64,000 bases of DNA from Escherichia coli (lineage in GTDB: Bacteria > Pseudomonadota > Gammaproteobacteria > Enterobacterales > Enterobacteriaceae): the NCBI RefSeq assembly GCF_003334335.1, contig NZ_QOWQ01000015.1; one strand, given 5' to 3'. The notes below the pieces were generated by a model. It was not told where the DNA came from. It saw only the letters and a program-made list of their open reading frames with translations, and searched no databases. A program made the position numbers and the translations under genes. Shown here one piece after another: positions 34,830-37,715 of this stretch. Within the stretch, counting starts at the first letter, position 1, and each line of letters starts with the position of its first letter.

Positions 34830-35429
34830 ATGCTCTATATCTTTGATTTAGGTAATGTGATTGTCGATATCGACTTTAACCGTGTGCTGGGAGCCTGGAG
34901 CGATTTAACGCGTATTCCGCTGGCATCGCTTAAGAAGAGTTTTCATATGGGGGAGGCGTTTCATCAGCATGAGCGTGGGGAAATTAGCGACGAAGCGTTC
35001 GCAGAGGCGCTGTGTCATGAGATGGCTCTACCGCTAAGCTACGAGCAGTTCTCTCACGGCTGGCAGGCGGTGTTTGTTGCGCTGCGCCCGGAAGTGATCG
35101 CCATCATGCATAAACTGCGTGAGCAGGGGCATCGCGTGGTGGTGCTTTCCAATACCAACCGCCTGCATACCACCTTCTGGCCGGAAGAATACCCGGAAAT
35201 TCGTGATGCTGCTGACCATATCTATCTGTCGCAAGATCTGGGGATGCGCAAACCTGAAGCACGAATTTACCAGCATGTTTTGCAGGCGGAAGGTTTTTCA
35301 CCCAGCGATACGGTCTTTTTCGACGATAACGCCGATAATATAGAAGGAGCCAATCAGCTGGGCATTACCAGTATTCTGGTGAAAGATAAAACCACCATCC
35401 CGGACTATTTCGCGAAGGTGTTATGCTAA
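34830..35429 (+). CDS. yihX: HAD-family alpha-D-glucose-1-phosphate phosphatase YihX
   Basis: ATG 34830 preceded by AAGGAGG; HAD motif I FDLGNV; 199 aa; recognised by recall. Confidence 0.93.
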
Positions 35430-36295
35430 AAACCATTCAGGACAAAGCCAGGCACCGTACCCGTCCACTATGGGCCTGGCTAAAACTACTCTGGCAACGC
35501 ATTGATGAGGACAACATGACAACCCTGGCAGGTAACCTTGCCTATGTGTCGTTGCTCTCATTAGTGCCGCTGGTTGCCGTTGTTTTTGCGCTTTTCGCCG
35601 CTTTTCCCATGTTTTCCGACGTCAGCATTCAGTTACGTCACTTTATTTTTGCCAACTTTCTGCCTGCTACTGGCGATGTTATTCAGCGGTATATCGAACA
35701 ATTTGTTGCCAATTCCAACAAGATGACCGCCGTTGGGGCGTGCGGGCTGATCGTCACCGCGTTATTGTTGATGTACTCCATCGATAGCGCGTTGAATACC
35801 ATCTGGCGCAGTAAACGAGCGCGACCAAAAATTTACTCGTTCGCCGTGTACTGGATGATTTTAACGCTGGGGCCGCTGCTGGCAGGGGCCAGTCTGGCGA
35901 TCAGTTCCTATTTGCTCTCCCTGCGCTGGGCGAGCGATCTCAATACTGTCATCGACAACGTGCTGCGTATTTTTCCGTTGCTGTTGTCGTGGATCTCCTT
36001 CTGGTTGCTGTACAGCATTGTTCCTACCATCCGCGTACCTAACCGCGACGCGATTGTCGGCGCGTTTGTCGCCGCACTCCTGTTCGAAGCAGGAAAGAAA
36101 GGTTTCGCGCTTTATATCACCATGTTCCCGTCATATCAGCTCATTTATGGTGTGCTGGCGGTGATCCCCATTCTCTTTGTTTGGGTCTACTGGACATGGT
36201 GTATCGTCTTGCTTGGCGCGGAAATTACTGTCACTCTCGGGGAATACCGCAAACTAAAACAAGCAGCTGAACAAGAAGAAGACGACGAACCATGA
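35423..36295 (+). CDS. yihY: YihY/BrkB-family inner membrane protein (formerly annotated rbn)
   Basis: 290-aa hydrophobic ORF; recognised by recall; overlaps yihX end and dtd start. Confidence 0.9.
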
Positions 36296-36729
36296 TTGCA
36301 TTAATTCAACGCGTAACCCGTGCCAGCGTCACCGTGGAGGGAGAAGTGACGGGCGAAATTGGCGCGGGACTTTTGGTGTTATTGGGTGTCGAAAAGGATG
36401 ACGACGAACAGAAAGCAAACCGTCTGTGCGAGCGTGTGCTCGGCTACCGCATCTTTAGCGATGCCGAAGGCAAGATGAATCTCAACGTGCAACAGGCGGG
36501 CGGCAGTGTGCTGGTGGTTTCCCAGTTTACCCTCGCCGCAGATACCGAACGGGGGATGCGCCCAAGTTTCTCCAAAGGTGCATCACCGGATCGCGCAGAG
36601 GCGTTATATGACTATTTCGTCGAACGCTGCCGTCAGCAAGAGATGAACACGCAAACAGGACGCTTCGCTGCGGATATGCAGGTATCGCTGGTCAATGATG
36701 GCCCCGTGACATTCTGGTTGCAGGTATGA
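36292..36729 (+). CDS. dtd: D-aminoacyl-tRNA deacylase
   Basis: 145-aa ORF; conserved SQFTL and C-terminal GP motif (NDGPVTF); start overlaps yihY stop (ATGA). Confidence 0.95.
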
Positions 36730-37715
36730 GCCAGCTTCCAGGGTTGTCACGGGAAACAAGAGAGAGTATCGCTATGTATCACCTTCGGGTTCCACAAACA
36801 GAAGAAGAATTAGAGCGTTACTATCAGTTTCGCTGGGAAATGTTGCGTAAGCCCCTGCATCAACCAAAAGGTTCGGAACGCGACGCGTGGGATGCGATGG
36901 CGCATCACCAGATGGTCGTCGACGAGCAGGGTAATCTGGTGGCGGTAGGCCGACTGTATATTAATGCCGACAATGAAGCGTCCATTCGCTTTATGGCCGT
37001 TCATCCCGACGTGCAGGACAAAGGGTTAGGCACGCTGATGGCGATGACCCTGGAGTCGGTGGCGCGTCAGGAAGGCGTTAAGCGCGTGACCTGTAGCGCC
37101 CGTGAAGACGCGGTGGAGTTTTTCGCCAAGCTGGGGTTTGTTAATCAGGGAGAAATCACCACGCCAACCACCACGCCGATTCGCCATTTTTTGATGATTA
37201 AGCCCGTCGCCACTCTGGATGACATTCTGCATCGCGGCGACTGGTGCGCGCAGCTGCAACAGGCGTGGTACGAACATATCCCGCTTAGTGAAAAAATGGG
37301 CGTGCGCATTCAGCAATATACCGGGCAAAAATTTATCACTACCATGCCAGAAACCGGCAATCAGAATCCGCACCATACGCTGTTTGCCGGGAGTTTATTC
37401 TCACTGGCGACGCTCACCGGTTGGGGACTTATCTGGCTGATGCTGCGTGAACGCCACCTCGGCGGAACGATTATTCTTGCGGATGCGCATATCCGCTACA
37501 GCAAGCCGATTAGCGGTAAACCTCATGCGGTAGCCGACCTCGGTGCCTTAAGCGGCGATCTCGACCGTCTGGCGCGCGGACGAAAAGCACGGGTGCAGAT
37601 GCAGGTCGAAATCTTTGGCGACGAGACGCCGGGTGCAGTGTTTGAAGGCACGTATATCGTTCTGCCCGCGAAGCCATTTGGCCCGTATGAAGAGGGCGGG
37701 AACGAAGAAGAGTAG
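36726..37715 (+). CDS. yiiD: GNAT N-acetyltransferase / hotdog thioesterase fusion protein YiiD (FabY)
   Basis: 329-aa ORF; start overlaps dtd stop (ATGA); recognised by recall. Confidence 0.9.

Follow-up and report, generated by a model that had tools for sequence, protein, structure and literature searches.

The yihX-yihY-dtd-fabY operon of Escherichia coli: two stop/start overlaps and a probable separate start for fabY

The genes yihX, yihY, dtd and fabY form an ordinary housekeeping operon of mixed function in Escherichia coli, and one that was already known. We believe the best reading is a single transcription unit in which yihY and dtd are translated by termination-reinitiation and fabY is initiated separately at ATG 36774. 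We give this full model a probability of about 0.72. The stretch of DNA analysed (the window, 64,000 nucleotides) is E. coli chromosome; E. coli chromosomes match the region at 100% identity and it was found in 5,426 of 5,426 complete genomes. Our evidence consists of sequence geometry, conservation, annotation and published initiation-site data, and from these we infer that the genes are co-transcribed in this strain and that translation of one really depends on that of another. A first-pass annotation had described a tightly coupled four-gene unit held together by three overlaps. The tight same-strand unit survives, and RegulonDB has it as well. The coupling is better divided into three genes with coupled geometry plus a fabY that is probably initiated on its own.

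The operon and its products

RegulonDB's four-gene operons include the transcription unit yihXY-dtd-yiiD, as quoted by PMC4421995. The genes, their order and their strand in this RegulonDB/EcoCyc unit of K-12 are all shared with the region analysed here (Table 1). The sole discrepancy is the start of fabY (yiiD), which gives 329 aa in the older K-12/UniProt style and 313 aa according to RefSeq/PGAP and tetracycline ribosome profiling (TetRP). With the RefSeq starts the spacings along the strand are -7 nt for yihX/yihY, -4 for yihY/dtd and +44 for dtd/fabY. A consensus scan found no plus-strand promoter inside the four genes and two weak terminator-like matches, both within coding sequence. No Rfam family matched between 33500 and 39500, and a literature text search for transcript or promoter evidence on the yihX/yihY operon returned no relevant match. 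Co-transcription in this strain is something we infer from the RegulonDB listing together with sequence features. Transcription would begin ahead of yihX, perhaps supplemented by read-through from csqR, and would end at the GC-rich hairpin directly after fabY. This hairpin is probably the 3' end of the unit, the predicted fold of 37705-37790 having an energy of -27.2 kcal/mol (z -2.59). The consensus terminator scan did not call it because its T run is short.

Table 1. Coordinates of the genes, junctions and predicted structures of the unit
Feature	Position	Strand	Basis or remark
yihX, alpha-D-glucose-1-phosphate phosphatase, HAD family	34830..35429	+	RefSeq; NCBIfam NF006991 equivalog, 405.8 bits, full length
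yihX stop / yihY start overlap ATGCTAA, 7 nt	35423..35429	+	sequence
yihY, BrkB-family membrane protein	35423..36295	+	NCBIfam NF002457 equivalog, 477 bits; Pfam PF03631 on homologues
yihY stop / dtd start overlap ATGA, 4 nt	36292..36295	+	sequence
dtd, D-aminoacyl-tRNA deacylase	36292..36729	+	RefSeq; NCBIfam TIGR00256 equivalog, 256.5 bits, residues 1-145
Predicted RNA hairpin enclosing the dtd stop and the upstream ATG	36704..36752	+	MFE fold
ATGA at the dtd stop, older K-12/UniProt-style yiiD start (329 aa)	36726..36729	+	sequence
Purine-rich AAGAGAGAG motif	36758..36766	+	8-16 nt upstream of ATG 36774; duplex -5.1 kcal/mol
fabY (yiiD, madA), GNAT and hot-dog malonyl-ACP decarboxylase domains, 313 aa from MYHLR...	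36774..37715	+	RefSeq CDS
GC-rich 10-bp hairpin	37722..37745	+	6 nt past the fabY stop; weak U tract

Dtd is a full-length match above the TIGR00256 cut-off of 101.5 bits. FabY has the architecture of the FabY/MadA family, an N-terminal GNAT domain and a C-terminal YiiD hot-dog domain. In the 329-aa numbering these occupy residues 19-162 and 171-314 (PMC8666670), and the TIGR02447 yiiD_Cterm domain matches residues 181-314 of YiiD. Calling this protein an acetyltransferase-thioesterase fusion, as the first-pass annotation did, has been superseded: the hot-dog domain is the malonyl-ACP decarboxylase MadA/FabY (PMC8666670). The same annotation remarked that the functional logic of the unit is not obvious. 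That is fair and also unremarkable, as some 70% of E. coli gene pairs with close spacing encode no complex partners (PMC10666635).

The order yihX-yihY-dtd-fabY is kept in most Enterobacterales loci. Vibrionaceae and Aeromonas have yihY-dtd(-fabY), relatives among the Pasteurellaceae and Orbaceae have yihY-dtd, and across these relatives yihY-dtd usually comes with ATGA. Dickeya, Pectobacterium, Photorhabdus, Xenorhabdus, Providencia, Morganella and Brenneria have lost yihY and retained dtd. We considered a universal association of dtd with yihY and rejected it, since YihY is absent from five more distant Dtd contexts (56-64% identity). The distant synteny was drawn from contigs encoding Dtd representatives, and the 120 matches listed by the YihY homologue search were all close relatives within the enterobacteria. 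The grouping would reflect gene order inherited within one gammaproteobacterial group, with no demonstrated shared pathway.

The yihX/yihY and yihY/dtd junctions

Termination-reinitiation (TeRe) calls for an upstream stop that overlaps or abuts the downstream start, which we take as a spacing of -8 to about +6 nt. Two junctions have this geometry, yihX/yihY and yihY/dtd; dtd/fabY has it only with the superseded start. Both overlaps had been reported in the first-pass annotation and both can be read directly in the sequence, with the yihX TAA stop at 35427-35429 over the yihY ATG at 35423, and the yihY TGA stop at 36293-36295 over the dtd ATG at 36292. Coupling requires an overlap or a very short gap, and at roughly 38 nt of spacing reinitiation in E. 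coli is nearly lost (PMC10666635). Four of five native E. coli ATGA pairs tested were coupled, the exception being bioBF (PMC6728339). The canonical ATGA of the TeRe pairs (Huber et al. 2019, PMC6728339; PMC10666635) is shared by yihY/dtd, the -7 overlap of yihX/yihY falls in the same phase class, and the weak Shine-Dalgarno (SD) sequence of some tested coupled pairs resembles that of dtd. The +44 nt from dtd to fabY lies outside the TeRe working range. TeRe overlaps are enriched among subunits of one complex, whereas the products of yihX, yihY and dtd are not known as such.

The SD sequence AAGGAGG in front of yihX is strong (SD/anti-SD duplex -11.6 kcal/mol), and ribosomes would load there on their own. 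The ORF listing also offers a GTG at 34809 upstream of yihX, which differs from the annotated start. The duplex for yihY is -3.5 kcal/mol. At dtd it is -1.9 kcal/mol, almost no SD at all in E. coli and its close relatives, and this makes coupling between yihY and dtd likely on the sequence evidence. The starts of yihY and dtd lie within the stop regions of the preceding genes, and it is most likely that both genes, dtd in particular, owe the greater part of their translation to ribosomes that have just finished the gene before.

Conservation of the two junctions differs in detail. Among loci with both genes, yihX/yihY is at -7 in most Escherichia/Citrobacter/Enterobacter-type genomes, at -4 or -1 in other Enterobacteriaceae and in Erwiniaceae, and has gaps as long as about 170 nt, measured to candidate starts, in Yersinia, Serratia, Hafnia and Budvicia. 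The yihY/dtd junction is at -4 in 44 of the 61 loci where yihY immediately precedes dtd, with Photobacterium, Vibrio, Aggregatibacter and Zophobihabitans among the 44. In related loci it ranges from -29 to +86. The SD of dtd is weaker at overlapping than at gapped junctions (median -4.3 vs -5.85; Mann-Whitney p 7.6e-5, the loci being phylogenetically non-independent), which is consistent with initiation at dtd relying on the ribosome that has translated yihY. Where a gap precedes dtd, the genome in most cases has a recognisable SD, and in several it is a canonical AGGAG.

It is important to realize that such overlaps, although real, are commonplace and no curiosity by frequency. By RefSeq annotation the window has 39 same-strand adjacent pairs, of which 4 overlap by exactly 4 nt, 8 overlap by any length and 9 lie between -8 and +10. 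Genome-wide in E. coli, -4 is the commonest spacing and 707 of 2,987 unidirectional pairs lie at -8 to +6 (PMC10666635). The further ATGA junctions that had been pointed out at fdhE/fdoI, fdoI/fdoH and rhaA/rhaB are all real and on the minus strand (fdoI/fdhE 40502-40505, fdoH/fdoI 41134-41137, rhaB/rhaA 55072-55075).

The start codon of fabY

The third overlap is a different matter. The string ATGA is present at the end of dtd as the first-pass annotation said, with the dtd TGA stop at 36727-36729 and an in-frame ATG at 36726 that opens a 329-aa ORF. As a stop/start overlap it probably does not hold up, since TetRP, PGAP and conservation all favour the start at 36774, which is 44 nt after the dtd stop. 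In the TetRP work of Nakahigashi et al. (2016, PMC4909307) yiiD is listed in row 111 as a 'new site' at the +48 ATG, with signals of 30.1, 22.0 and 6.1 in three replicates against 7.2, 0 and 0 at the upstream ATG. This re-annotated start is exactly the one our comparison favours. Their list comes without the comparative and structural arguments that we add here.

The comparative argument is straightforward. The sequence ATGTAYCA stands at the start in 59 of 59 Enterobacterales loci carrying fabY, and the ATG of MYHLR and the AGAGAG motif are both conserved across the Enterobacterales. The AAGAGAGAG motif, probably the ribosome-binding site of fabY, keeps its position across the order, also in genera where it is clearly non-coding; an AAGGGG-type SD replaces it in Photorhabdus, Providencia, Brenneria and Dickeya. 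Upstream of the MYHLR ATG there is no start, or there is an in-frame stop, in Cedecea, Serratia, Yersinia, Dickeya, Pectobacterium, Photorhabdus, Hafnia and others. The upstream ATG is made from the last Dtd codon, GTA (Val), followed by TGA. It is absent wherever Dtd ends in TAA or TAG, and another Val codon turns it into GTGA or TTGA. We therefore consider it most likely that ATG 36726 is not the main start of fabY and that ATG 36774 is the working one. The ATGA at the dtd stop would be a by-product of GTA followed by TGA, helped along by an older start-codon annotation. Because its start is 44 nt past the dtd stop, too far for termination-reinitiation, fabY would stand outside the relay and be initiated de novo with its own purine-rich ribosome-binding motif.

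The 16-codon extension can be read in frame from the upstream ATG, without a stop, in 20 of 20 Escherichia/Citrobacter/Enterobacter-type sequences (Enterobacteriaceae), and its two indels (+3 and -12 nt) are both multiples of three. For these reasons a minor long isoform of FabY is conceivable and may be made. Selection for an open frame across the extension was considered and rejected. Stops occur in 0 of 20 sequences in the fabY frame and in 1 of 20 in the +2 frame, so the latter is nearly as open, and the codon-position pattern of constraint is absent: column entropies at the three positions are 0.51/0.70/0.74 over 15 extension codons, against 0.08/0.00/0.89 in the adjacent dtd codons. A TRAINSPOTTER N-terminomics supplement had no yiiD/fabY entry.

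Alternative explanations

The strongest competitor, although unlikely in our opinion, is that the overlaps have no function, being the outcome of neutral compaction and stop-codon placement with every gene initiated independently. Dtd begins Met-Ile (ATGAT...) in 80 of 80 related loci; this places a TGA of the yihY frame on every dtd start, and the ATGA is partly built in. The C-terminal tail of YihY is short, acidic and variable, and the position of its stop can therefore drift, as the spread of yihY/dtd junctions indicates. The sliding of the yihX/yihY junction, the lineages that lost yihY and kept dtd, and the uncoupled bioBF pair all point the same way. Against this, the near absence of an SD at dtd, with an SD in most gapped genomes, is what would be expected if the overlap substitutes for it. 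The record of the other tested ATGA pairs and the retention of the -4 form in most loci over several orders also argue against it. A full relay through all four genes, with three stop/start overlaps and FabY made as 329 aa from ATG 36726, is more doubtful still. It can appeal to the ATGA, to the open frame and indels of three just described, to several Erwiniaceae that also hold an open frame from ATGA, GTGA or TTGA, and to the TetRP signal at the annotated yiiD site in one of three replicates. But the main TetRP signal and the PGAP start are downstream, many Enterobacterales have a stop or no start codon upstream of the MYHLR ATG, and the extension is no more open than a non-coding frame. ATG 36726 has an SD duplex of -2.2 kcal/mol and is buried in a predicted stable hairpin, and the folded GNAT domain begins only at residue 19.

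That hairpin suggests another way to connect dtd to fabY, which we regard as slightly less probable again: ribosomes finishing dtd could melt it and so modulate access to the fabY ribosome-binding site. Coupling through RNA structure is a known mechanism (PMC6728339, introduction). The minimum-energy fold of 36690-36800 is -39.3 kcal/mol (z -2.84). Among 20 Enterobacteriaceae 91% of cells are paired, compared with 15-51% in slid controls, and 19 retain a CCCG/CGGG stem. Covariation is seen at one pair (CG 8, UA 7, UG 5), and several relatives have a minimum-energy fold in which the AGAGAG motif, too, is paired with dtd codons. However, the RNAalifold consensus is weak (-6.7 kcal/mol, covariation term -0.6), the covariation is a single pair whose score is matched by 5 of 500 shuffles and is attainable without structure, and the E. 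coli fold leaves the ribosome-binding motif outside the main hairpin. The 5' arm would be constrained regardless because it encodes the conserved C-terminus of Dtd, and the hairpin is not evident beyond the Enterobacteriaceae. We continue to prefer reinitiation at yihY and dtd with a separate start for fabY.

A YihY-Dtd partnership?

The yihY-to-dtd stop/start junction is kept in Enterobacterales, Vibrionaceae and relatives among the Pasteurellaceae and Orbaceae. It is tempting to see in this junction, and in the loss of the dtd SD in enterics, a functional partnership in which YihY handles (for example exports) the D-amino acids freed from mischarged tRNA by Dtd, or in which Dtd synthesis is placed at the membrane. 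We would call this a long shot. No reported YihY-Dtd or YihX-YihY complex was found. YihY is a membrane protein of six helices, for which a recent preprint proposes a CysZ-like transporter fold while stating the function as unknown (bioRxiv 10.64898/2026.03.31.715626). One database protein (P0004) joins YihY and Dtd in frame, a fusion that would be topologically possible because the C-terminus of YihY is cytoplasmic.

Conclusions

This work has little significance beyond annotation hygiene, yet the lesson there is a useful one. A wrong start codon can create an apparent ATGA coupling. The 329-aa model of YiiD persists in UniProt-style annotation and in published numbering, and its 16 N-terminal residues are probably made rarely or never. 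The linkage of yihY with dtd offers a modest lead toward the function of YihY. Finally, dtd is a clean example of a gene that seems to have given up its Shine-Dalgarno sequence, with a stop/start overlap taking its place.

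Overlaps at the gene junctions

The yihXY-dtd-fabY unit is an already known operon with commonplace stop/start overlaps. RegulonDB, as used in PMC4421995, gives yihXY-dtd-yiiD as a four-gene operon, and on that listing co-transcription is accepted. Our consensus scan found neither a + strand promoter nor a convincing terminator inside the unit. The 3.1 kb around it matches E. coli chromosomes at 100% identity, and a search of 5,426 complete E. coli genomes found it in every one.

The first-pass annotation claimed that stop/start overlaps couple the four genes at three junctions. 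Read in the sequence, the 7-nt overlap of yihX and yihY is ATGCTAA (yihX TAA 35427-35429, yihY ATG 35423) and the 4-nt overlap of yihY and dtd is ATGA (yihY TGA 36293-36295, dtd ATG 36292). The ATGA overlaps also quoted for fdoI/fdhE, fdoH/fdoI and rhaB/rhaA are all real junctions. At dtd/yiiD the ATGA exists too (TGA 36727-36729, with ATG 36726 opening a 329-aa frame). Since every quoted string is present, the question left is whether the third is a gene junction, and it most likely is not, the main start lying at 36774.

Such overlaps are ordinary. Among the 39 same-strand adjacent pairs in the window (RefSeq annotation), 4 overlap by exactly 4 nt, 8 overlap at all, and 9 are spaced -8 to +10. 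Genome-wide the commonest E. coli gene spacing is -4, and 707 of 2,987 unidirectional pairs are spaced -8 to +6 (PMC10666635). Of the closely spaced gene pairs in E. coli, about 70% encode products that are not subunits of one complex (PMC10666635), so the mixed function of this operon is not odd. The description of yiiD as an acetyltransferase-thioesterase fusion carries a superseded label: its hot-dog domain is now known as a malonyl-ACP decarboxylase (MadA/FabY) that permits FabH-independent initiation of fatty-acid synthesis (PMC8666670). A 2026 paper ties cAMP levels in lag phase to the Salmonella FabY protein (PMC13353551), and a 2026 preprint reports a CysZ-like six-helix fold for YihY (bioRxiv 10.64898/2026.03.31.715626).

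Features of the operon and other observations in the window (csqR, yihX, yihY, dtd and fabY lie in this order in the RefSeq annotation)
Feature	Position	Strand	Remarks
yihV	33010-33912		RefSeq start 33016, ORF listing ATG 33010; alternative ATG start at +33 in a TetRP supplementary figure
csqR	33946 (RefSeq start)	+	ORF call from upstream GTG 33922
yihX	34830-35429	+	Glucose-1-phosphatase (RefSeq; NCBIfam equivalog match NF006991)
yihY	35423-36295	+	BrkB-family membrane protein (RefSeq; NCBIfam equivalog match NF002457)
dtd	36292-36729	+	D-aminoacyl-tRNA deacylase (RefSeq; NCBIfam equivalog match TIGR00256)
Predicted RNA hairpin	36704-36752		Surrounds dtd stop and ATG 36726; z -2.84
AGAGAG	36758-36766		Before the fabY start
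fabY (formerly yiiD)	36774-37715	+	YiiD C-terminal domain TIGR02447 (NCBIfam)
GC-rich 10-bp hairpin	37722-37745		6 nt past fabY stop
fabY-yiiE spacer			852 nt, AT-rich
Partial pseudo-CDS (PGAP)	38075-38191		Between fabY and yiiE
Candidate 35-aa small ORF (MVANINLIKQ...)	~38126-38233		Between fabY and yiiE; TetRP supplement, U00096.2 4076872
rhaR/rhaT 3' ends	~58768-58771	+/-	Convergent, overlapping 4 nt (24999-25002 in L003; RefSeq annotation)

The start of fabY

The main fabY start is ATG 36774, favoured by conservation, ribosome profiling, absent coding constraint, the domain boundary and ribosome binding. RefSeq/PGAP places the start there (MYHLRVPQ..., 313 aa), 44 nt past the dtd stop. In our comparison set of 80 Dtd-anchored loci, one genome per species, every one of the 59 Enterobacterales loci with fabY has an ATGTAYCA start (MYH..., MYY... 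or MYQ...). A purine-rich motif stands at a fixed distance 5' of this conserved ATG, AAGAGAGAG in most genera; an AAGGGG-type motif replaces it in Photorhabdus, Providencia, Brenneria and Dickeya. In many genera the stretch from the dtd stop to the conserved ATG contains a stop codon or offers no start codon; Cedecea, Serratia, Yersinia, Hafnia, Dickeya, Pectobacterium, Photorhabdus, Rahnella and Budvicia are among them. The upstream ATG is limited to loci whose last Dtd codon is GTA followed by TGA; GTG or GTT gives GTGA or TTGA at the junction, and with TAA or TAG the upstream start is gone. The upstream ATG is a by-product of the way Dtd ends at its C-terminus.

Tetracycline-inhibited ribosome profiling (TetRP) classed yiiD as a 'new site' at ATG +48 (PMC4909307, supplementary table S2 row 111), with signals of 30.1/22.0/6.1 against 7.2/0/0 at the annotated site (PMC4909307). 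No coding-type constraint was found by column entropy in the 15 extension codons of 20 Enterobacteriaceae sequences: codon positions 1/2/3 give 0.51/0.70/0.74, and neighbouring dtd codons 0.08/0.00/0.89. The fabY frame is open across the extension in 20/20 sequences, yet so is the +2 frame in 19/20, and therefore openness counts for nothing. The GNAT domain starts at residue 19 in the long (329-aa) numbering (PMC8666670), and the Shine-Dalgarno (SD) duplex is more stable for 36774 (-5.1 kcal/mol) than for 36726 (-2.2 kcal/mol). A minor long FabY isoform is possible, given a small upstream TetRP signal in one replicate and extension indels of +3 and -12 nt.

The AGAGAG before fabY (relatives' loci L004-L083) is an unusual purine-rich motif with a weak anti-SD match. 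It lies 8-16 nt upstream of the start and is kept across Enterobacterales, a few genera having the canonical AAGGGG. Its role may go beyond that of a weak SD.

Probable coupling within the operon

The two remaining overlaps, yihX/yihY and yihY/dtd, are real and, as far as sequence can tell, probably functional in coupling. The -4 spacing at yihY/dtd occurs in 44 of the 61 loci with yihY upstream. It is partly structural, because Dtd starts Met-Ile (ATGAT) in every locus compared, which puts a yihY-frame TGA on the dtd start; YihY, for its part, ends in an acidic tail that varies. The SD of E. coli dtd is close to nil (-1.9 kcal/mol), while that of yihX is strong (-11.6). The median dtd SD is weaker at overlapping than at gapped junctions (-4.3 versus -5.85; p 7.6e-5, kinship between loci ignored), and canonical AGGAG precedes dtd in several gapped ones. 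This pattern is consistent with termination-reinitiation feeding dtd; of five native ATGA pairs of E. coli examined by Huber et al., four were coupled (PMC6728339). One database protein only, P0004 (ENA, 434 aa), has an in-frame YihY-Dtd fusion (...AAEQEETTTMIALIQ...) and otherwise matches E. coli at 100% identity; a natural frameshift at the ATGA junction could explain the fusion, as could an assembly error.

A spacing of +38 nt nearly abolishes reinitiation (PMC10666635), so dtd-to-fabY, at +44, falls outside this mechanism. It might instead be argued, with low confidence, that the predicted RNA structure around the dtd stop mediates dtd-to-fabY coupling. Among 20 Enterobacteriaceae its local stem CUGGYU/RRCCAG contains a single covarying pair and the closing stem CCCG/CGGG is kept in 19, but RNAalifold gives a weak consensus and the shuffle control does not decide the matter.

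Conservation of gene order

The order yihX-yihY-dtd-fabY is kept in most Enterobacterales. Photobacterium and Vibrio have yihY-dtd-fabY without yihX, Aeromonas has fabY 0.7-1.1 kb downstream of dtd, and Pasteurellaceae and Orbaceae have yihY-dtd without fabY. In Dickeya, Pectobacterium, Brenneria, Photorhabdus, Xenorhabdus, Providencia and Morganella yihY has been lost from between yihX and dtd, with yihX 7-189 nt upstream of dtd. Most yihY-less Enterobacterales loci have a recognisable SD before dtd (the yihY-less loci are L032, L033, L034, L036, L039, L042, L043, L046, L048, L054, L062 and L064).

YihY was absent near dtd in all five of the more distant Dtd contexts (56-64% identity), where neighbours include a proline-iminopeptidase-like hydrolase (twice), tyrosyl-tRNA synthetase and a peptidase; therefore the yihY-dtd linkage is lineage-specific synteny. 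In one distant lineage (ENA metagenome contig L088, genes 143-1381 and 1456-1893) dtd lies directly 3' of tyrosyl-tRNA synthetase, where the functional logic (D-Tyr-tRNATyr) is obvious, unlike the enteric context.

Conclusions

The third overlap, dtd/yiiD, is artefactual, produced by a start codon that is now outdated. Ribosome profiling flagged this outdated fabY start in 2016, and RefSeq has already made the correction.
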